Positions 6,733 to 48,732 of a DNA stretch of 64,000 bases are shown one piece after another. Both the position numbers and the translations under genes were made by a program. Positions within the stretch are counted from its first letter, which is position 1, and each line of letters starts with the position of its first letter. Origin of the DNA: a virus; IMG/VR virus record IMGVR_UViG_3300038393_000909, positions 1 to 64,000 of that record, one strand, 5' to 3'. The notes under the pieces were generated by a model. That model was not told where the DNA came from and ran no database searches. It saw only the letters and a program-made list of their open reading frames with translations.

Positions 6733-6990
6733 ATGGATGAGGGCGAGCGCCGGAACGCGACGCGGAAGGTGCTATCCGGCCGCGATGTTGAGGTGTGGCG
6801 TCTCAGTCGAGGACTCGATTACGGATCAATGGGTAGAATGCTCGGCGTCACGGCGCAGTCCGTCAAGAAGTACGAGAGCAGCGGCATGTCGAGGAAGGAT
6901 GCTCTAGCCCTTGCAGCCATCGACGAAGGCCTAGAACCATACAAGCCGACCGAGGAAGATATACAACTCGCAGAGGAGGCGAAGAAATGA
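6733..6990 (+). CDS. XRE-like HTH protein
   Basis: WRLSRGLDYGSMGRMLGVTAQSVKKYE. Confidence 0.7.
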   Translation: MDEGERRNATRKVLSGRDVEVWRLSRGLDYGSMGRMLGVTAQSVKKYESSGMSRKDALALAAIDEGLEPYKPTEEDIQLAEEAKK

Positions 6991-7379
6991 GACCGAGAGC
7001 CATCGGTACTGCGCATGGCCCGTTCGATATAAAGCTCAACCCGCGATTTGATAAGCGCCTCGATGGATTGATCAACGACTTGGCGACGATCGCGCTACAG
7101 ATTCAGGAGCCGCTGCAGGAAGCGCGGGATCTCTTGGAGGAACTGCAGAGCCACATCGAGGCGGAGACTGAGCGTACGCAGGTTCGTAAGGAACTGGGCG
7201 AGCTGCGGTCGAACCCGGTCGAGGTCGATGGTGCTACCATCTGGCTGGGAAGCCTCGCCGTCCTTGCTGAGGCGTCCAACCCGCGTGGCGTGATGCGATC
7301 CCTCGAGACGGTCAACGAGGTGATCGATGCGATCAAGTACGGCCTCCAGGGTAAGGAGGTCGGCCACCCCGAGGAGTGA
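6987..7379 (+). CDS. hypothetical coiled-coil protein
   Basis: ATGA overlap with the upstream gene. Confidence 0.55.
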   Translation: MRPRAIGTAHGPFDIKLNPRFDKRLDGLINDLATIALQIQEPLQEARDLLEELQSHIEAETERTQVRKELGELRSNPVEVDGATIWLGSLAVLAEASNPRGVMRSLETVNEVIDAIKYGLQGKEVGHPEE

Positions 7380-8549
7380 CCGACCCAAGTCTCAAGGAGG
7401 AAAGCGCCACTAAGCAAAGCGCGCATCCTCTATGCCACGCCGTTTGCAATCGTGCAAGCGGTTCGATTCGATTTCTCGAGAGCCAGCCATGTACGAGAAG
7501 ACGGTGAGGTATGGCGAGTCGGGCGTCATGAGCGACGAGCGGTTCGAGATCAAGGCCGTGACCCACGACGAGGAAGGGATCCACTGGGGCGCCAACAGCT
7601 TCGTTCGCCTACGCGATGAGGATAGCGGCGAAGAGTGGACACTCGACCAGGAGAAGGCTCAGAAGCTGGCGAACGCCCTGCTCGGAGCCGTGCGTTACCT
7701 TAAGAGATGGAGCTGATCATGAACCCCGACATCGACCGCCTGTGCTCAGCCGCACAGCAGCCCGCCTATGCCTACGCCCTCAAGGTTACCTCAGAGGGTG
7801 CCGGTGGATGCGGGGCTGAACTCGAAGCCATCGTCCGCGCCATCCTGACCGAGATGAAGACTATGAGCGTTCACATGCTCCAAGCCAGGGTGTCGGCTGA
7901 GAACCCCGCCTTCATATGGAGCGATGTCATCGACCGGATATTGGAGGGGAACTATGACTGAGACCGCACGCGCCCAGCTGGTGCGCTACCTGCGCCGCGA
8001 GATCAACGCCTTCGATCCCGAGGTGGATGAGGCTGATGCGGGATGTATCGAGTGCACATGCGGCACGGTCCCGATCCACCTGGAGACTGGACTGTGTGAG
8101 CGACATGAGGCCGAGGCGATCCTGCTGAAGATGAAGAGGACGCGATGAACGCAGACAAAAATAGTTTCGGATACCCAGCGCCTGAAGTTCCCTGCCGCGT
8201 ATGCGGTGGGTTTAAGAACAACCAGAGCGAGCCGCGCTTTGGGTACGTGGTCTGCGAGGATCACCAGGACGTACAGCCCATACACATACCACTCGAGGCG
8301 CCGAAGAGAGGCAAGAAGGATTGAGATGAACGTAGACATGACACGGCTGTGTGAGGCAGCCAAGAGGGCTCAGCCCGGTCTTACGCTGCCTGGATGCCGC
8401 GACGTCGTGCATGCCGTGCTCACCGAACTGCGGGCTATCTACAGCGAACGCCGGGACGACGACGTGGCGGACTTTGTGGCGTCGTTCCTTCTCGATAAGA
8501 TAGTGATGCTGCTCATCACGGAGCCGCTGGTGGTTCACAGCAACGACAA

Positions 8550-20784: not shown

Positions 20785-20864
20785 GCCGTTTGCATGTTTG
20801 CTTGAATTCAAGCGCGTCGCAAACGGAGTTGCGCTACTGCAAACGCTGAGCGCAAATGCGCAAA

Positions 20865-20896
20865 GCCCTCGCCCTAACCGGCGGGGGTTTTTCTTT
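20865..20896 (+). terminator. rho-independent terminator
   Basis: GCCCTCGCC-loop-GGCGGGGGT followed by TTTTCTTT. Confidence 0.75.
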
Positions 20897-20962
20897 GTCC
20901 ACAGGGTTGGAACGGCTTGCTGCCTGTTTGCATTAGTTGTAACGAAGGGGAGGAGGTGGCCG

Positions 20963-21826
20963 ATGCAAATCAACATGCGCCGTTTGGTCGGCGTCGGTAT
21001 GAGCCAGGAGGTTCGCGAGGCACGCCAGGGCTGCATCGGTGGCTCGGACGCCCGTATCATCATGTCGGGCGATCAGAAGGCGATCGAGACCCTGTGGCGT
21101 GAGAAGCGCGGTGAGAAGGTGCCCAAGGATCTCTCCGAGGTCATCCTCGTCCAGCTCGGCAACGTCACCGAGAACCTGAACCTCGCCGTGTTCGAGGGGC
21201 AGACCGGTTCATTCGTTGCGGGCGAGCAGACACGGCCGGCGTACGAGGAATGGCCTATCGCCATGTCGACGCTCGACGGGCTCAAGTTTAATTCCCAGGA
21301 TGAATTCCTGGCTGGTGTCTCGCCGCTTGCAATCGTCGAGGCGAAGTTTGCCTTGCCGTTCCGGTGGACGCTGCAGACATCGATAGACAAGCACTACGCA
21401 CAAGTACAACATAACATGATGGTCACCGGTCTCAAACGTGGCTGGTTGTCTATCATCACGGGCGGTGGCCAGTACGCAAAGGTTGAGATCGAAGCTGACT
21501 ACTTCTACCAGATGGCGCTGCTCGATGCTGAGCAGGAGTTCTGGAAGTGTGTCGAGACTGGCCGGCGTCCTGGTGCACCTGAGATCGATGTACCTGTCCT
21601 TGAGGTCGTCGACGAACCGATAGACATGAGCACTAACAATGCCTTCGTTGATTTGGCTATCACTCTGCAGGAGACCTGTAAGTTCGCAGCTCAACATGAG
21701 AAGGCCAAGAAGGACATTAAGGAGTTGATGCCTAAGGGAGCCAAGATTGCGTTCGCAAGGGGCGTGACGATCTCCAGGGCTGTTAACGGGCGCATGACGG
21801 TCAAGGTAGACGGAGAAGCTGCGTGA
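20963..21826 (+). CDS. YqaJ/lambda-exonuclease-like recombination nuclease
   Basis: IGGSDA, LWREKRG, STLDG, EAK, YAQVQHNMMVTG. Confidence 0.88.
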   Translation: MQINMRRLVGVGMSQEVREARQGCIGGSDARIIMSGDQKAIETLWREKRGEKVPKDLSEVILVQLGNVTENLNLAVFEGQTGSFVAGEQTRPAYEEWPIAMSTLDGLKFNSQDEFLAGVSPLAIVEAKFALPFRWTLQTSIDKHYAQVQHNMMVTGLKRGWLSIITGGGQYAKVEIEADYFYQMALLDAEQEFWKCVETGRRPGAPEIDVPVLEVVDEPIDMSTNNAFVDLAITLQETCKFAAQHEKAKKDIKELMPKGAKIAFARGVTISRAVNGRMTVKVDGEAA

Positions 21827-22024
21827 TCCTGCCCCTGATCGTTTGCATTTCCGCATACATGGCTCTTGCTTTTGCCATGGCATTGGCATTAATTGGAATG
21901 GCAGGCGTCGCAGCGGACGCTGTCGGTATCCTCCCCTCCTCCCTGGTGGCGCCCTTCTACGGGTCGGCACTCATCGGAACGGCAGGGGCAAACATCATCG
22001 CACACAGTCTCTAAGGAGGACGCA

Positions 22025-22897
22025 GTGGCAGAGGTCAATTCCAACCTGAAGATCTGGGAGAAGGTCCAGCGCACTGACCCGAAGCGGACTAAGCCGTTCA
22101 AGGGTGCTGGTGGTTTCTCGGGTACAGCGATCAATGCAACCTACCTCGCACAGCGTGCGACCGAGGTGTTCGGTCCCATGGGCCTTGGCTGGGGCATGAA
22201 CATCATCGAGGAGAAGATCCTCGACTTCGGTGATGACAAGATCCACTCTCTGCGTGGCGAGCTGTGGTACGTTCTAGACGGCAAGACAGGATCGATCCAG
22301 CACTTCGGTCAGACGAAGATCTGCGGAAAGAACAAGCACGGTGCCTTCGTCGACGAGGATGCTCCGAAGAAATCACTCACCGACGTGATGTCGAAGTGTC
22401 TTAGCCTTCTCGGCTTCGGAGCTGACGTTCATCTTGGGCTCTATGATGACAACCGGTACGTGACGCATATCACGAACCAGATCGCTGATGAGCGCAGGGC
22501 TGCCCGTGAGGAATCTAAGGCTTCCAAGGATGCTGATGCCGAGCCCAAGGAAGATGCCAGCCAGGGTGATGGTGAGCAGCAGGCCAGCGACAACGTTGTC
22601 CCCCTGCAGCGCAAGGCCAAGGCTGAACCCGAGGTCCAGGCCGACCCGCAGACCGGTGAGATCGGGTCCGAGCCTCTCGACCTCGATGCCGAGATGACGG
22701 CGGCCGACGTGATCAAGAAGAAGATCGACGCCTACGACGATGCCAAGGCGCTCGGTGAGTACATGAACGATCGCGAGACCCAGGCGGACATGTTCCGTCT
22801 CGGCAAGGAAGTCCGTGAGCAGGTTCGTGACTACGCGATCAAGCGTCACGTCGAGCTGCGAGCCAAGGCGAAGGCCGCCGCCATCCCGGCCGAGTGA
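22025..22897 (+). CDS. single-strand annealing protein (Rad52/Sak-like)
   Basis: ATEVFGPMGLGWG, DEDAPKKSLTD..K..S.LGFGADV; lies next to the exonuclease. Confidence 0.7.
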   Translation: MAEVNSNLKIWEKVQRTDPKRTKPFKGAGGFSGTAINATYLAQRATEVFGPMGLGWGMNIIEEKILDFGDDKIHSLRGELWYVLDGKTGSIQHFGQTKICGKNKHGAFVDEDAPKKSLTDVMSKCLSLLGFGADVHLGLYDDNRYVTHITNQIADERRAAREESKASKDADAEPKEDASQGDGEQQASDNVVPLQRKAKAEPEVQADPQTGEIGSEPLDLDAEMTAADVIKKKIDAYDDAKALGEYMNDRETQADMFRLGKEVREQVRDYAIKRHVELRAKAKAAAIPAE

Positions 22898-26269: not shown

Positions 26270-26297
26270 CGTCGGAAAACTGGCCGTTTTCCCGACA
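26270..26297. repeat. 28-bp res-site-I-like palindrome A4 (extra half-sites at 26342 and 26370)
   Basis: CGTCGGAAAACT-GGCC-GTTTTCCCGACA, 1 bp after a stop codon. Confidence 0.72.
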
Positions 26298-26385
26298 TCG
26301 CGCCGGGTCGGTCCCGGAGCCCATCAAAACAGCCCCGATCCTGTCGGGAAAACGTGTCAGCCTATCAAATGTCGGAGAAACGGTA

Positions 26386-26622
26386 ATGGCGAGCAATCCC
26401 GACGACATCTTCGGACCTTGGGATGGGCCGCCCGATCTGGTGAGCGCCATTGCAGCCGAGGTCATGGGCTTGAAGTGGACCCGTGCCGACACCGAGGACG
26501 AACACTGCGACCGCTACGGCGAGGTGCAGGAGGTCGTTGCCGCGACCATCGCCCGGATGCTGGCCGAGCACCCGACGCACGATTTCCTAGCGGCCTTCTC
26601 CCCCGCCCCGGCCGGGGAGTGA
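26386..26622 (+). CDS. hypothetical protein
   Basis: Stop codon abuts empty site S0. Confidence 0.6.
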   Translation: MASNPDDIFGPWDGPPDLVSAIAAEVMGLKWTRADTEDEHCDRYGEVQEVVAATIARMLAEHPTHDFLAAFSPAPAGE

Positions 26623-26647
26623 GACGGAGACGGTATCCCCCATACCA
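26623..26647. other. empty att-like core site S0
   Basis: GACGGA-gacggta-TCCCCCATACCA. Confidence 0.75.
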
Positions 26648-26664
26648 GCAACAGGAGAGCGAAA

Positions 26665-26829
26665 ATGGAACAGCACAAGATCATCGAAGCGGCAGACACG
26701 CCCGGCAGCATTGGCCCCGGCGACATCGCCCTCACGATCCAATGGCCAGACGGCACGGAGACCGTCGAGCACGTCTCAGAGCAGGCCGCACGGGTGCTCG
26801 GGTACACCTATCCCGACGAGGACGAGTGA
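26665..26829 (+). CDS. 54-aa hypothetical cassette gene X1
   Basis: AGGAG RBS; MEQHKIIEAADTPGSIGPGDIALTIQWPDG... Confidence 0.65.
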   Translation: MEQHKIIEAADTPGSIGPGDIALTIQWPDGTETVEHVSEQAARVLGYTYPDEDE

Positions 26830-26835
26830 GACGGA

Positions 26836-27278
26836 TGGGATTGCGGACATTTCGGCAAGTATTGCTGAGGAGCATTAAATGAAAGCGGCGCACCTTGAAT
26901 ATCTGAAACGTATTGCGACCGATTTAGACCAGATTGGCGCCACAGGCAGAGCTAACCAATTACGGTATATCATCGGTCAACTGTCCGCCCAATCCGCCGC
27001 GCATGATAGGGCCGATGTTGGGGCCGGATGGGTGCTCGTTCCAGCGGAACCGATGCCGGAAATGGTTGCCGCATGGTGGCGCGTAAAGAACACCGGCTCG
27101 ACGGAGCCGGGCGAGACCGGCGAGGATCGCAGCGATTGCGCCGCATACCGGGCGATGGTCGCCGCCGCACCTCGACCGCCGGCAAAAGTTGGGGCCTGAG
27201 TTGGGGCCGGGCCGTTATGGGTTATCCCATAACGAAATTACTTCAACGGCTTAGCGAAGATTTCCGATTTCTGGGATT
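26836..27278 (+). mobile_element. mini integrative element E1 (duplicated 7-mer TGGGATT)
   Basis: 7-mer at 26836-26842 and 27272-27278; arm pairs at 27005/27017 and 27188/27200; IHF-like box at 27239-27256. Confidence 0.75.
26879..27199 (+). CDS. E1 cargo ORF (WVLVPAEP..EM..YRAMVAAAP domain)
   Basis: GAGGAG RBS; reads through the arm repeats. Confidence 0.65.
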   Translation: MKAAHLEYLKRIATDLDQIGATGRANQLRYIIGQLSAQSAAHDRADVGAGWVLVPAEPMPEMVAAWWRVKNTGSTEPGETGEDRSDCAAYRAMVAAAPRPPAKVGA

Positions 27279-27302
27279 TCCCCCATACCAAGAGAGGAAG
27301 CT

Positions 27303-27590
27303 ATGACGGCCTTAGAATACCTCAATGAGGCGGCCACGCCCGGCCAATGGTTCGCCGGGCATTGGGGCGGCCAGTGCCATAAGAAGCACAGCCACTCGGG
27401 CCGAGGTGGTGCCGATCCGTGTGTCTATGAACCTGTTCGGTATGACGGCCCCGAGAACGGCATAGCGACAGAGGATGGCAGATCTGTCCTTGCGAGTAGC
27501 TATGACGGGTTCGAGATGCTGCCTGCCAATGTCGAGTTCGTCGTCGCGCTCGTGAATGCTTTCCGATCCGGCAAGCTCGTGGAGCGGTAG
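27303..27590 (+). CDS. hypothetical cassette gene X2 (ATPGQW..NVEFVVALVNA)
   Basis: GAGG RBS after CCCCCATACCA. Confidence 0.7.
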   Translation: MTALEYLNEAATPGQWFAGHWGGQCHKKHSHSGRGGADPCVYEPVRYDGPENGIATEDGRSVLASSYDGFEMLPANVEFVVALVNAFRSGKLVER

Positions 27591-27603
27591 GCAATTCGAC
27601 GGA

Positions 27604-28079
27604 AGCGATCACGGGCAATTCGGCAAGCATTACACGGGAGTGACAAGTTATGGCGGCTGACCTCGCAGAACTCCGAAGGATGTGCGGAGAATTGGACAAC
27701 CGCGGATACAGTGCGGAAGCGCAAGAGTTTCGCGAGGCCATCGCCGAAATCTCCGCCCTACGCGCCGCGCAGGTTGGGGCCGGTGATGGGGCCGGATGGA
27801 AACCGATTGAGACAGCGCCGAAGTGTGGCAAGCGCATCATCGGATGGGTGCCAGGGTGGGAATACGCCCGCTGCTACGCATTCGTCACAGCCGGCGGCGA
27901 ACCGTTCGGGTGGCGCAACGAAGCCGGTCGCGTGATGGAACACGAACAGCCGACCCATTGGCTGCCGTGGCCCGAACCGCCGCCCGCTGTTGGGGCCGAT
28001 GTTGGGACCGGCACTGATCTACCCGCGTCTGCCTCCTGATACTTCAAGGGCTTAGCGGACATTTCAGGAAGTAGCGATC
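27604..28079 (+). mobile_element. mini integrative element E2 (duplicated 7-mer AGCGATC)
   Basis: 7-mer at 27604-27610 and 28073-28079; arm pairs at 27773/27785 and 27989/28001; IHF-like box at 28040-28057. Confidence 0.75.
27650..28039 (+). CDS. E2 cargo ORF with DUF551-like domain
   Basis: WKPIETAPK...PTHWLPWPEPP. Confidence 0.7.
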   Translation: MAADLAELRRMCGELDNRGYSAEAQEFREAIAEISALRAAQVGAGDGAGWKPIETAPKCGKRIIGWVPGWEYARCYAFVTAGGEPFGWRNEAGRVMEHEQPTHWLPWPEPPPAVGADVGTGTDLPASAS

Positions 28080-28103
28080 CCCCCCATACCAAGCGAGGAA
28101 GCG

Positions 28104-28250
28104 ATGAGCGACGAAACGAAGGCCAAGCTGATCTCTGAGCTTGCCCAACTTCTAGAGGCTCTGCGGACAGGCGAGCTGGACCATTTCGATGTCGGAGACT
28201 GGCTTGAGGATAACGGCAGCCGCGTGCTCGCCGCGCTCAAGGCCGAATAG
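28104..28250 (+). CDS. 48-aa hypothetical cassette gene X3
   Basis: GAGG RBS; MSDETKAKLISELAQLLEALRTGELDHFDVGDWLEDNG... Confidence 0.65.
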   Translation: MSDETKAKLISELAQLLEALRTGELDHFDVGDWLEDNGSRVLAALKAE

Positions 28251-28259
28251 TTCGACGGA

Positions 28260-28681
28260 CGGGGCCACGGAAATTTTGGTAAGTAATCAGCGATGGTGGT
28301 AAATTATGATGGTGTCGCGGAATACATTGGTAATGATTGCGCAAGTTGCGGAGGAGCAAAATCGCAGCAGATTAAACACACCTGTTCGGGTTGAGGCGGG
28401 CGAACTGTCCGCCAATCACGAGGGAGGGGTTGGGGTGAATGTTGGGATGGAAAAGAGCATCGAAACCCGCGCAGCGGATGCCCTGGATGCGATCTACGAG
28501 GAGACGATGAGCAAGCACGTCAACATCGCGAGTTGCAGGGATGCACGTCGCGCTATCATCGTCCAAGCTATTCGCGATGCGCTGGCAGATGTTGGGGTAA
28601 ATGTTGGGGTAAGTGCCCCGCAAGCATAGCCCGGAGCCTGATACTTCAGGCACTTAGCGAGCACTTTGCGCGGACGGGGCC
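28260..28681 (+). mobile_element. mini integrative element E3 (duplicated 7-mer CGGGGCC)
   Basis: 7-mer at 28260-28266 and 28675-28681; arm pairs at 28429/28441 and 28591/28603; IHF-like box at 28642-28659. Confidence 0.75.
28306..28629 (+). CDS. E3 cargo ORF
   Basis: Arm repeats are read as VGVNVG twice. Confidence 0.55.
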   Translation: MMVSRNTLVMIAQVAEEQNRSRLNTPVRVEAGELSANHEGGVGVNVGMEKSIETRAADALDAIYEETMSKHVNIASCRDARRAIIVQAIRDALADVGVNVGVSAPQA

Positions 28682-28704
28682 TCCGAAATACTAGGGAGAG
28701 AGCA

Positions 28705-28920
28705 ATGCAGTGGACCGTATGGGACGAAGACGACGTTGACGGCGATCCGCGGTGTGACCCGCTCGCCCGCGCCTGCAAAGAATGGTTCATCGGCATCTGG
28801 CCCGCCGACAAAGACGAGCCGCTAGTTCGGATCTGTGTCGGCGGCCGGGATGGCGAACACACCGCCCATCACCTCGCGGACAGCTTGAACGACGCGAAGG
28901 CATTCCCGCCGGCAGTATGA
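28705..28920 (+). CDS. hypothetical cassette gene X4
   Basis: GGGAG RBS; stop codon overlaps empty site S4. Confidence 0.65.
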   Translation: MQWTVWDEDDVDGDPRCDPLARACKEWFIGIWPADKDEPLVRICVGGRDGEHTAHHLADSLNDAKAFPPAV

Positions 28921-28939
28921 CGGACAAGGGTTCCGCCAT
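28917..28939. other. empty att-like core site S4
   Basis: ATGACGGA-caagggt-TCCGCCAT (7/8 inverted repeat around a 7-bp spacer). Confidence 0.7.
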
Positions 28940-38948: not shown

Positions 38949-39302
38949 ATGTCTGCGGCCATGACGATTACTGACGATACCCCGCTGCGTCTGGCGGACG
39001 CGGTTGTAATTGCATTTCCCCATGGAGGCATGACTGAGGCCGGGCTGCGCAGGGAGGCCAAGCGCGGGCGCCTTGAAATCGAACGGATCGCCGGTAAGGA
39101 CTTCGTCACCCTTGCCGCGATCCGAGAGATGAGAACCCGATGCCACGTCCAGCGAAGGGCGCAAGACTCTGGCTCAGGCCCGAGCGCCTCGACGATCAGG
39201 GACGCGTGCGTGAGCGATCGACATGGATCATCCGGGATGGATCAAAGACGGTCAGCACGGGATGCGCTCCTGAAGCGCGTGCGGACGCTGAAAAGTGCCT
39301 GA
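38949..39302 (+). CDS. excisionase (Xis-like)
   Basis: PLRLADAV..AFPHGGMTEAGLRREAKRGRLEIERIAGKDF; overlaps the 5' end of the integrase. Confidence 0.75.
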   Translation: MSAAMTITDDTPLRLADAVVIAFPHGGMTEAGLRREAKRGRLEIERIAGKDFVTLAAIREMRTRCHVQRRAQDSGSGPSASTIRDACVSDRHGSSGMDQRRSARDALLKRVRTLKSA

Positions 39303-40441
39303 GCGCCTACATTGAGCAGAAGTACCGCCCGGCGCGCAGGCGGCGTGAGATCGAGGAGATCGGGATCGCTGACGTCCTGGCGATCTACCTCGAGGATACC
39401 CGCGAATCCCAGGCCAACAAGCGCGCCTTCGACGGGCGCATCGAGCGCCTCGCTGAATGGTGGGGCGAGAAGACGCTGTCCGAGGTCACGGGCGAGACGT
39501 GCCGGGCCTATGTCGAGCACCGCGCATCCGCCGAGCGACAAGCGGTCAGTGGCAAGCGCGGAGCCGTCGGGAGAAAGGGCACCAGCGGCGGAGCGCGCCG
39601 CGACCTTGAGGACCTGCGCGCGGCGATCAATCATCACCACGGACAAGGACTCCACCGCGAGGCCATCCGCGTGATCCTGCCCGAGAAGGGGGCGGCCCGC
39701 GATCGATGGCTGACCCGGTCCGAGGCCGCGCGCCTCGTCTGGTTCTGCTGGCGCTACCGCGATACCCAGACCTGGAACAAGGGCACGCGCGCCGGCAAGA
39801 GCGTCGTGACCAACAAGCGGTCGCTGCGCCATATCGCGCGCTTCATCCTGATCGGGCTCTATACCGGGACGCGGGCCGGGGCCATCGCTTCAGCCTCGCC
39901 CTATAAGAGCGCCGGTCACTCTTGGGTCGATCTCGAGAGCGGGCGGTTCTACCGGCTCGCCGAGGGCAAGAAGGCGACGAACAAGCGACAGCCGACCGCG
40001 CGCATCCCATCGCGCCTGCTCGCCCATCTCAGGCGATGGTCCAGAGCGACGCAGGGCAAGGACGGGCCGCCCGTCATGCGGACCCATTTCGTCGAATGGA
40101 GGGGCAAGCCGGTCGGGTCGGTGAAGGTCGCTTTCGGCCGGGCCGTGCGCGCGGTCGGCCTGGGCGATGACGTGTCGCCCCACACCCTGCGGCACACCGC
40201 CGCGACGTGGCTCATGCAGCGCGGCGTCGACAAATACGAGGCGGCCGGATTCCTCGGCATGTCGCTCAAGATGATCGACGAGGTCTACGGCCACCACCAT
40301 CCCGATTTCCAGGACAGCATCGACGCGGCGTTCGCGACCCGCAAGCCGGCGAATCAGGGTCCGCACCGCTTCGCCGGACGGCACGTTTCTGTTGGCATAA
40401 CTGTGGGCGTAGAGGGTGACGCCGCCAAGGATATGGTGTAA
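39140..40441 (+). CDS. int: tyrosine integrase
   Basis: YTGTRAGAI (R), KR, SPHTLRHTAATW, VYGHH (Y). Confidence 0.93.
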   Translation: MPRPAKGARLWLRPERLDDQGRVRERSTWIIRDGSKTVSTGCAPEARADAEKCLSAYIEQKYRPARRRREIEEIGIADVLAIYLEDTRESQANKRAFDGRIERLAEWWGEKTLSEVTGETCRAYVEHRASAERQAVSGKRGAVGRKGTSGGARRDLEDLRAAINHHHGQGLHREAIRVILPEKGAARDRWLTRSEAARLVWFCWRYRDTQTWNKGTRAGKSVVTNKRSLRHIARFILIGLYTGTRAGAIASASPYKSAGHSWVDLESGRFYRLAEGKKATNKRQPTARIPSRLLAHLRRWSRATQGKDGPPVMRTHFVEWRGKPVGSVKVAFGRAVRAVGLGDDVSPHTLRHTAATWLMQRGVDKYEAAGFLGMSLKMIDEVYGHHHPDFQDSIDAAFATRKPANQGPHRFAGRHVSVGITVGVEGDAAKDMV

Positions 40442-40620
40442 GTACTTGAGAATGTTGGTGGGCCCGGCAGGACTCGAACCTGCAACCAGACCGTTATGAG
40501 CGAGACGGTGATACGTTAAGTATTTGAAATCATTCGATCGATTGCGTGCAATCAATGCCGATTGGCGCGTTTTGTTCTCATTCTCAGCGATCGTTTCTGT
40601 GGGATAACTGTGGGCGTAGA
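40384..40620. other. attP: arm repeats - IHF-like box - tRNA core - IHF-like box - arm repeats
   Basis: CGTTTCTGT(TGGC/GGG)ATAACTGTGGGCGTAGA at 40384-40413 and 40592-40620; TAAGTACTTGAG at 40439 and TAAGTATTTGAAAT at 40517. Confidence 0.85.
40456..40502 (-). other. 3' half of a CAT-anticodon tRNA (tRNA-Ile2/Met-like) = attP core
   Basis: Reverse complement CGCTCATAACGGTCTGGTTGCAGGTTCGAGTCCTGCCGGGCCCACCA; no 5' half present. Confidence 0.85.
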
Positions 40621-41550
40621 ACGAATGGACACCGAAGAAAACGACACCCTCTACGCCGACGCGCTCCTCGGCCGCGACCCAAACTGGAACATGATCGACG
40701 AGCTTGAGAAGCGCGGGCTCGGTCGATGGACAGGCGGCTTCCATGACCGTTGGGACTGGAACCCTGGAGCGGTCAGGGCTCTGCCGGTCGATGAGCAGAA
40801 GGCCCTGTACGAGCGGATCAAGGAGGCATGGGGCCGATGACCGACACAATCCGTCAGACCGTGGAAGCCTTCATCGACGGCCTGCGTGACCGACATCCCC
40901 TCACCATCACCGACGACGTCGACATCGCCGTCACAGCGAACCTTGAAACGCAGGAGCTATTCGTGAAGCTGAGCGGCAAGACGCCGTATGGGAATGCGTA
41001 TCTAGCTAAGGTGCTGGAACGGATGGGAGAGTTGGAATGACCGCGGCAGGCAGACTGTTTACGATCGCAGCAGCAGCTGCATGGATCGGGTTATCCGTCT
41101 GGACGCTCTTGGCTCTCTACCGCGCGGAAGACACAGTGCAGCCACTGCCACCCGGTGCGACCCTGGTCGCCATCGTCGGGGTCATGTCCTGGGCTCTTGA
41201 GTGCGGCAATCGCCTGATCAAGGCCGTGCGAAGCCTGTGTTCTGGTCTACCGGAGATGCCAGCATGACCGACACGAGAGACCGCACCGCCCTGAAGCGCG
41301 AATCCGTCGACCAGATGCTCGCGGTTATCAGATCCGGCGGCCAACCGTTCCCTGGTTATCGGGTCGAGCTGCCGGCTGACTTCGACCTGGAGGAGGCCTA
41401 CCGCACGGGTGCAGTGGAGGTGATGGTCACATTGCCGCCTACGCTGGATCGATTCGAGTTCGACACAGGATGGCTGGAACCAAAGGGCGCTTGACGCCCA
41501 CCCTCCGTGCAGATATTAGCCAATTGGCTACGATCGAATCGGAGAAACCC

Positions 41551-47661: not shown

Positions 47662-48732
47662 CTAGGCGAAACGACGGGCGAGTTCGAGCATCGAGATGAA
47701 CTTGGTGCCGAGGACACGGCCGCCGTGGACATCGATCTCGTAGACGCCGTAGCTCCAGCCAGTGGTTGCGAGCCGGGCATACTGCGCGACGTACCCGTGC
47801 GGCATGGCGGAGCCGAGGTTCAACACCGTGACGTTGAAGTTATGGATGCCGATCTTCGGGACAGTGATCTCGTTGCGTCGGTGCGTGTGGCCGAATATGA
47901 TGGAACAGGCCGCATCGTTGGCGATTGTCCGCTCAACGTTCTTGCCGCCCATGGGCAGGTTCATCACGTTCAGCGGCACATGAACGAAAGAGCACCCCTC
48001 GATATGCGCGTACTCGCCGTAGTCGTAGGTCTGCCAGCCATGGTTGTGAAACAGCCCGGTGACGCGGGACCACAGAGCATTCTCCATCTCAGGCGTCGCG
48101 TTCTCGAACTTCAGGACCCTGGCCTCGTGGTTGCCGAAGGTGATGTGATGCGGCGGCATCTCGGCGAGTGGCACCTCCTGGGCGATGAGGTCCAGAGACT
48201 CCTCGACCGCCTCAAGGTCATCGAGGAATGACGGCTTCTGCCGACCCTTGAGGGTATCGTTCTTGTCGTGAGTCGAGCACGAATCCCACGATCCCCAGTC
48301 GCCGATCTGCACGACGTGGTCGTAGGCCCCCTCCCCGATCAGACGTCCGATCCAGGTGAAGCGGGACAGGTCGGAGTTCGGCTGGACGTGGGTGTCGCCG
48401 ATGGCCAGGATCCGCTTGGGGCGATCGACGCCAGCCTTGATGCGGACGCGCGGCTTCTCATCCAGCACCACCCGTGGCTGGCTCTTCTGGGCCGGGTTGT
48501 ACAGGTCCCAGTCCGGCACGTAGCTCTCGAGGAGGTTGTCGTTAAACCACAACTCCTTGCGCACCCATTTGGCGTAGGTGGATGTGGCCACACCGTCACG
48601 ACGGCAGGCTTCTTCGAGCGCGGACCCTTGCCCACCCGCAACTCCAGGCGGTGCGAATCCTGCACGCAGCAGACCTTCGACGAGGGTCTTCCTGCGCCCG
48701 CGCTCATCGCGCGAGAGCGTACCTGCCGCCAT
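47662..48732 (-). CDS. calcineurin-like metallophosphoesterase with N-terminal HTH
   Basis: IGDTH, IGDW, GNHE, FGHTH. Confidence 0.88.
   Translation of the reverse strand: MAAGTLSRDERGRRKTLVEGLLRAGFAPPGVAGGQGSALEEACRRDGVATSTYAKWVRKELWFNDNLLESYVPDWDLYNPAQKSQPRVVLDEKPRVRIKAGVDRPKRILAIGDTHVQPNSDLSRFTWIGRLIGEGAYDHVVQIGDWGSWDSCSTHDKNDTLKGRQKPSFLDDLEAVEESLDLIAQEVPLAEMPPHHITFGNHEARVLKFENATPEMENALWSRVTGLFHNHGWQTYDYGEYAHIEGCSFVHVPLNVMNLPMGGKNVERTIANDAACSIIFGHTHRRNEITVPKIGIHNFNVTVLNLGSAMPHGYVAQYARLATTGWSYGVYEIDVHGGRVLGTKFISMLELARRFA

Follow-up and report, generated by a model that had tools for sequence, protein, structure and literature searches.

One of the described systems that come closest to the locus reported here is that of the dif modules of Acinetobacter Rep_3 plasmids, where modules of small genes, themselves lacking a recombinase, are arrayed between short two-arm sites of variable spacer (pdif) that are served by the host recombinases XerC and XerD. 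An array of similar design is present in a stretch of 64,000 nucleotides (positions 1 to 64,000, hereafter the window) that forms part of the 98-kb IMG/VR virus record IMGVR_UViG_3300038393_000909 (genome label G000), where four small genes (X1 to X4) alternate with three homologous single-gene modules (E1 to E3) between positions 26621 and 28939. The locus is best described as gene cassettes arrayed within the early region of a phage, which is probably temperate. While the plasmid and phage systems have the above traits in common, the phage array differs in its 7-bp spacer (6 bp in pdif), in arms that are GC-rich 8-mers of the ATGGCGGA and TCCGCCAT types in place of 11-bp XerC/XerD boxes, in sites that all face one way, as opposed to the alternating orientation of pdif sites, and in a conserved order of its spacers.

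Another example of gene exchange at short sites is provided by the PeSL (promoter plus stem-loop) cassettes of T4-type phages, which resemble the array in that short conserved intergenic motifs flank orphan genes in a hyperplastic region and mediate insertion, deletion and replacement, and for which mini-circles with one motif and a gene have been demonstrated (PMC2839356). PeSLs extend over roughly 70 bp, recombine by homology and have no slot-specific core, whereas the repeated identity in the phage array is only 7 bp and no promoter-like or terminator-like sites were found on the plus strand between 25800 and 29400. In the case of lambda Int, the choice of partner is set by identity of the overlap. 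Lambda-type att sites and heterospecific lox/FRT exchange share with the array a 7-bp overlap that is duplicated at both junctions of an insert, and in the heterospecific lox/FRT systems it is spacer identity that sets partner choice (PMC1479339). The inserts of the array, however, carry no integrase, and their inner half-sites are poorly symmetric. We know of no natural phage array of several heterospecific sites.

Integron cassettes are likewise promoterless single-gene cassettes placed in tandem at recombination sites within one transcription unit, but integrons have IntI, attI and attC hairpins with paired core sites and one shared core, none of which the phage array has, its addresses being distinct. 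The sites are without attC-like imperfect palindromes, and the only tyrosine recombinase of the window phage lies 10 kb away, beside a tRNA-type attP. The ultra-small mobile elements of mycobacteriophages (MPMEs) are ~440 bp long, encode one small conserved open reading frame (ORF), have 11-bp inverted repeats and are present or absent between related phages. The E elements are alike in size, in their single small ORF and in presence or absence, whereas they have no inverted repeats and their cargo is variable. What would mark an insertion sequence, a miniature inverted-repeat transposable element or an MPME is thus lacking, as there are no terminal inverted repeats and the flanking words are limited to three invariant 7-mers in seven phages.

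A complete site of the array spans ~23 bp and is made up of the 7-bp spacer between two 8-bp arms, a left one (ATGGCGGA-like, usually with a CGGA end) and a right one (TCCGCCAT-like) that continues into the next ribosome-binding site. The best-preserved sites have dyad arms; spacers are asymmetric, and each position of the array has its own spacer word. E1, E2 and E3 are single-gene inserts in the second, third and fourth sites, and hence each is bracketed by two copies of its spacer, namely TGGGATT, AGCGATC and CGGGGCC, at repeat-to-repeat distances of 436, 469 and 415 bp, respectively; single sites with the spacers GACGGTA and CAAGGGT close the array (Table 1). An initial annotation of this DNA had noted that the two ends of each element match in a 7-mer that differs between sites, and this was confirmed for E1 to E3, where the left box begins 8 nt after the 7-mer and the right box begins 33 nt before it, the probability of three exact 7/7 pairs arising by chance at these predefined positions being ~2e-13. 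At E3, the flanking repeat is longer than the 7-mer (11 exact bases, or 17/19; repeat family D17). The site type has no occurrence outside the array in the 98-kb genome.

The layout of an E element is that of a left box, an ORF with two in-frame tandem pairs of the word GTTGGG (12-bp period), and a right box, and homology among E1, E2 and E3 is found at the ends and at the two internal tandem pairs. Alignment of the E proteins with their database homologues shows four parts: a leader of ~41 amino acids (aa), a first linker, a variable cargo, and a second linker with a short Pro/Ala-rich tail. Beyond weak matches of cargo domains, the X and E genes obtained no family name from Pfam or PHROGs. 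No inverted repeat joining the ends of any E element was found; the last 18 nt of the right ends resemble the first 18 nt of the left end, most closely for the right end of E2 (28040-28073) and the left end of E1 (16/18), other pairs being weaker. Each E thus has imperfect terminal direct repeats inside its spacers.

Protein and motif searches identified six more carriers of the array, all of them in IMG/VR: G001 (L113), G002 (L123), G003 (L143), G004 (L050), L156 and L092. Scanning viral contigs with the right-end motif gave mostly chance matches, but led to L050, L058 and L092; a pattern scan of viral sequences gave no carriers beyond those known, the metagenome scan gave chance matches only, a similarity search of isolate phages was without match, and so was the right-module pattern in GTDB genomes. 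At least three lineages, unrelated or distantly related in other respects, are represented among the carriers, with G002 and G003 syntenic at 77% identity, G000 and G001 sharing patches at about 70% identity, and the pairs G000/G002, G001/G002 and G002/G004 having essentially no DNA in common outside the array. Across the flanks compared, common sequence is limited to the array and the ~1 kb that precedes it. The 195-bp left module of E2 is 96% identical between G000 and G001, and the unrelated G001 and G002 share stretches of 151-287 bp at 86-91% identity, these highly similar segments running from a site to a linker pair or to the next site. Judging from these segments, recent exchange between unrelated phages has evidently taken place.

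The spacers recur among the carriers in an order that is mostly kept, namely GACGGTA, TGGGATT, AGCGATC, CGGGGCC and then CAGGGGA, CAAGGGT or GGGGGCA, and the genes between them are almost all different. GACGGTA, which opens the array in the window, is also found in L113, L123 and L143, and the CAAGGGT that closes it stands in a perfect dyad site in L113. When junctions were extracted by anchoring on the E boxes rather than on the 7-mers (13 left and 11 right E junctions), only three words and one variant with two substitutions (CGGTACC, in L123) were recovered from the seven phages. The 8-mers adjoining the spacers differ at 20-46% of pairwise positions, although the classes in which mismatches were counted are defined by the spacer itself, so that the fair measure of invariance is the small number of distinct words and not a mismatch rate. 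Exact pairs of 7-mers flank E1 to E3 and seven further E elements in relatives, and one further pair differs by two bases.

Both empty and occupied states of the same slots are seen. TGGGATT is empty in L113, AGCGATC in L143 and L050, and CGGGGCC in L156, and genes other than E elements also sit between duplicated spacers: GACGGTA is duplicated around an HNH endonuclease module in L143, pairs of GGGGGCA bracket unrelated genes in L143 and L113, and in L113 two-gene blocks are bracketed by TGGGATT and by CGGGGCC with a near-variant of it. Duplicated copies have been found around at least five different spacers. For the non-E inserts, the two copies agree only in the spacer and at most a few further bases; such 7-mer-limited identity is in keeping with an exchange staggered by 7 bp, and ordinary homologous recombination would need a longer stretch. 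The HNH_3 endonuclease gene lies at L143 5062-5430 in the GACGGTA slot, and a second reading frame apparently follows it.

It had been predicted from the two empty sites of the window that related phages would hold further elements flanked by GACGGTA or CAAGGGT. For GACGGTA, the L143 module is such an insert, though not an E element, and for CAAGGGT none was found among the carriers. The same annotation had named movement of the X genes rather than the E elements in relatives as a result that would refute its idea; E slots are also empty in relatives, but the X genes vary between phages at least as much as the E elements. That the X genes were inserted into an array of E genes was considered and rejected, since neighbouring X genes would then need to share spacers by chance.

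On these comparisons the 7-mers are addresses of slots in a shared array and not of elements. The suggestion that each cassette has its own address did not hold, given that leaders are shared between addresses. One leader module adjoins TGGGATT in L113 and AGCGATC in L123, with 88% identity in the untranslated part and 83% in the coding part and with the differences bunched within the first 23 nt, a distribution suggestive of crossing-over inside the conserved left box; another adjoins TGGGATT in the window and CGGGGCC in L050. The right ends of E elements, unlike the leaders, group by address. L113 also has E genes with two unlike flanks, and the second E there is a hybrid whose tail belongs to the AGCGATC class and whose right box belongs to the CGGGGCC class. 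There are therefore several kinds of breakpoint, and not the spacer alone.

The best reading of these data, which we put forward tentatively and with a little less than even confidence, is conservative site-specific recombination between sites of the same spacer by a recombinase supplied in trans. In this scheme, the spacer would be the crossover core, and recombination would occur only between sites with identical spacers; the cassettes themselves carry no recombinase. Circles with one site would enter or leave the matching slot, and two phages in one cell could swap the gene between neighbouring addresses while the order of the array is kept. Heterogeneous inserts combined with a single, slot-specific, invariant and asymmetric 7-mer between dyad arms are as expected from such same-spacer recombination. 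Duplicated spacers and conserved order are consistent with same-spacer joining as in dif modules. The canonical overlap of lambda-family tyrosine integrases is 7 bp long, and the earlier proposal of lambda-type recombination agrees with the array in this length but not in the enzyme, since no recombinase is common to the carriers. That the 7-mers serve as orthogonal addresses is plausible and partly borne out, in that the words are distinct, asymmetric and invariant in seven phages and inserts lie between two local copies, while the whole enzymology, that is, a site-specific reaction, its dependence on the spacer and the identity of the enzyme, is something that we infer.

Several observations weigh against this reading. 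The E element encodes only a small variable protein, and a cognate integrase is neither in the element nor always in its carrier: tyrosine integrases are found in G000, G001 and G004, whereas G002 and G003 (CheckV completeness 100%) have a small serine recombinase only and no tyrosine recombinase. When all G000 ORFs were compared with G001-G004, none of the proteins was shared by all four, and those shared by three of them were a lysozyme-type transglycosylase and a metallophosphoesterase. Resemblance of the inner half-sites to the arms is weak: the E left end matches the right arm at 5/8 positions, and the E right end resembles the left arm in two of three classes and not at all in the third. 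Right-arm variants accompany the spacer in phages whose downstream genes differ, which places many breakpoints between the arm and the start codon and not at the spacer, and leaders move between addresses, probably by way of breakage within the conserved left box. There is no likeness to dif in the sites, neither a circle junction nor a tandem E-E junction was present in the sequences examined, a YqaJ-type exonuclease upstream of the array could support short-homology exchange, and every carrier was drawn either from one of two metagenomes (3300037467 and 3300037419) or from the window's own record.

The main rival, which we consider rather unlikely, is short-homology general recombination, of the Red type or by host functions, between conserved regulatory or boundary junctions, in which the spacer would only lengthen the homology available in the same register. 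At 20798-22897 in the window, the YqaJ-type exonuclease (Pfam) is followed by a 334-aa ORF without family match, which is likely an annealing protein, and the pair, lying 4 kb upstream of the array, has the look of a Red-like recombination module. The hybrid E genes of L113 also favour such exchange, as do breakpoints at the linkers, within the left box and in the interval from right arm to start codon, and the finding that PeSL mini-circles form and re-integrate without a dedicated recombinase (PMC2839356). This explanation predicts, however, that the arms should be at least as conserved as the spacers, when the reverse is found; moreover, the identity between the copies that flank an insert, 7-12 bp, is too short, and PeSL-type promoter or terminator signals were not found in the stretch scanned.

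It is improbable that the E elements are miniature integrative elements of the lambda type, each having an overlap of its own, that the phage integrase mobilises with the GTTGGG pairs as arm-type sites. Evidence for this comes from the tandem pairs, which keep their 12-bp period and, in every E checked, the same distances to the left spacer (162/174 nt) and to the right spacer (84/72 nt), from a similar tandem pair that otherwise occurs only at the attP beside the integrase gene (3 in 98 kb against 0.1 expected), and, weakly, from a right box that resembles the consensus of integration host factor. The fixed right-hand spacing is, however, largely explained by the C-terminal tail, which has a conserved length and is closed by a conserved stop codon within the right box, although in E1 and E3 the length is unchanged despite earlier stop codons. 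E elements of the same geometry are present in the two complete genomes that have no tyrosine recombinase, leaders are not bound to one address, the attP pattern was defined only after the attP had been seen, and the attP repeats of G001 differ. Action of the phage integrase on the sites is accordingly unsupported, as the sites occur only in the array, the attP repeats are only loosely linker-like and two carriers are without the enzyme.

Target-site duplication, in which a transposase-like enzyme would make 7-bp staggered cuts across the spacer that are duplicated on repair, is highly improbable. It would account for duplications of exactly 7 bp whatever the spacer or insert, but E elements are without terminal inverted repeats, the inserts have no common ends, no transposase was found, and the invariance of the spacer across unrelated phages would be left unexplained. 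Least probable of all is that the sites are pure punctuation, RNA hairpins or operators for the control of expression with duplications that are old accidents kept by descent, since, although two of the sites in relatives form good hairpins (with z scores -4.3 and -2.6) and the right arm abuts the ribosome-binding site, loops and spacers should then be the least constrained parts and are here the most conserved, duplications surround at least five different spacers, there is no Rfam match, and a hairpin role was rejected for the window's own sites and junctions, which fold no better than shuffled sequence.

Apart from the spacers, the E genes carry a second set of conserved words. Among the codons of the long ORFs, GTT accounts for 17% of those for Val and GGG for 15% of those for Gly, and all nine coding Val-Gly linkers in the window (9/9) are written GTTGGG, which argues that the linker is constrained at the DNA level. 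One more copy follows the stop codon of E1, which falls between the two copies of the second linker pair (27188-27208), leaving the second copy non-coding and intact; a strong hairpin is located 3' of this pair at ~27212-27233. Across E proteins, cargos are paired with different leaders. In P0009, the E1 cargo recurs at 89% identity with a different leader, one E cargo of L113 stands alone as a gene in L050, and the E2 cargo is DUF551-like (a weak match). The linkers thus flank a variable cargo, and it is there that cargo domains have been swapped, as a second tier of modularity. Taken together, the numbered 7-bp cores may form a natural cassette-exchange platform on which unrelated phages of the same host trade single early genes in register by means of a recombinase that is not cassette-encoded, and on which the in-frame GTTGGG linker code would permit cargo swaps within a conserved protein frame; we regard this as possible and somewhat short of probable.

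Table 1. Sites, genes and cassettes of the array, and the phage integrase, in window coordinates.
Feature	Position	Strand	Remarks
Site S0	26621-26647	+	left arm, spacer GACGGTA (26629-26635), right arm into X1 ribosome-binding site; single copy, i.e. empty
X1	26665-26829	+	54 aa; homologue in L113
E1 cassette	26836-27278	+	TGGGATT copies 26836-26842 and 27272-27278; ORF 26879-27199
E1 internal parts	linker pairs 27005-27025, 27188-27208; right box 27239-27256	+	
X2	27303-27590	+	95 aa
E2 cassette	27604-28079	+	AGCGATC copies 27604-27610 and 28073-28079; ORF 27650-28039, DUF551-like cargo
E2 internal parts	linker pairs 27773-27793, 27989-28009; right box 28040-28057	+	
X3	28104-28250	+	48 aa
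E3 cassette	28260-28681	+	CGGGGCC copies 28260-28266 and 28675-28681; ORF 28306-28629
E3 internal parts	linker pairs 28429-28449, 28591-28611; right box 28642-28659	+	
X4	28705-28920	+	71 aa
Site S4	28917-28939	+	8-bp arms, near-dyad, around spacer CAAGGGT (28925-28931); single copy
Phage tyrosine integrase	39140-40441	+	candidate trans-acting recombinase only; homologue in G001; no sign of action on the array

A number of further features were noted around the array and elsewhere in these genomes. Near-palindromic boxes of the GTCGGAAAAC / GTTTTCCCGAC type lie just 5' of several small coiled-coil genes (window 26270-26385; L123 4380-4790; L050 minus strand ~6960-7620) and are conserved directly upstream of the array in otherwise unrelated carriers; they are likely early-operon operators. 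At the other end, the arrays of G002 and G003 finish alike, with a last site, ~60 nt of shared sequence and a terminator-like hairpin preceded by an A-run (L123 7518-7540, where the last site is a perfect dyad, and L143 ~7830-7920), and this common end suggests a defined end of the operon. The metallophosphoesterase mentioned above is calcineurin-like, is encoded on the minus strand of the window at 47662-48732 and is among the very few proteins common to G000, G001, G002 and G003; it directly follows the array in G002 (~43.8-44.7 kb) and G003 (~36.5-37.4 kb). The probable attP of the phage is at 40384-40621, just 3' of the integrase gene, and is bounded by direct repeats of ~30 bp (40384-40414 and 40593-40621), each with a tandem TGT(T/G)GG pair. 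Within it lies the 3' part of a minus-strand tRNA-Met-like gene (~40456-40500, anticodon loop 40494-40500), and ARAGORN called no tRNA there.

Phage mosaicism is usually credited to selection acting on the products of illegitimate or short-homology recombination. In the present array, conservation is higher at the junctions than in the genes; the junctions are common to phages without other DNA similarity, and each has an invariant core that is specific to its position. If the cores direct partner choice, the array would be the first phage counterpart of the dif-module system and a natural analogue of engineered cassette exchange at heterospecific sites, and it may offer phage engineering a supply of mutually orthogonal sites. 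The in-frame linkers, with their constraint at the DNA level, are indicative of a further, independent route by which domains are shuffled in small phage proteins. Small accessory early genes are typically those of host take-over or anti-defence, and exchange at numbered cores would explain how such genes spread between unrelated phages with their operons intact.

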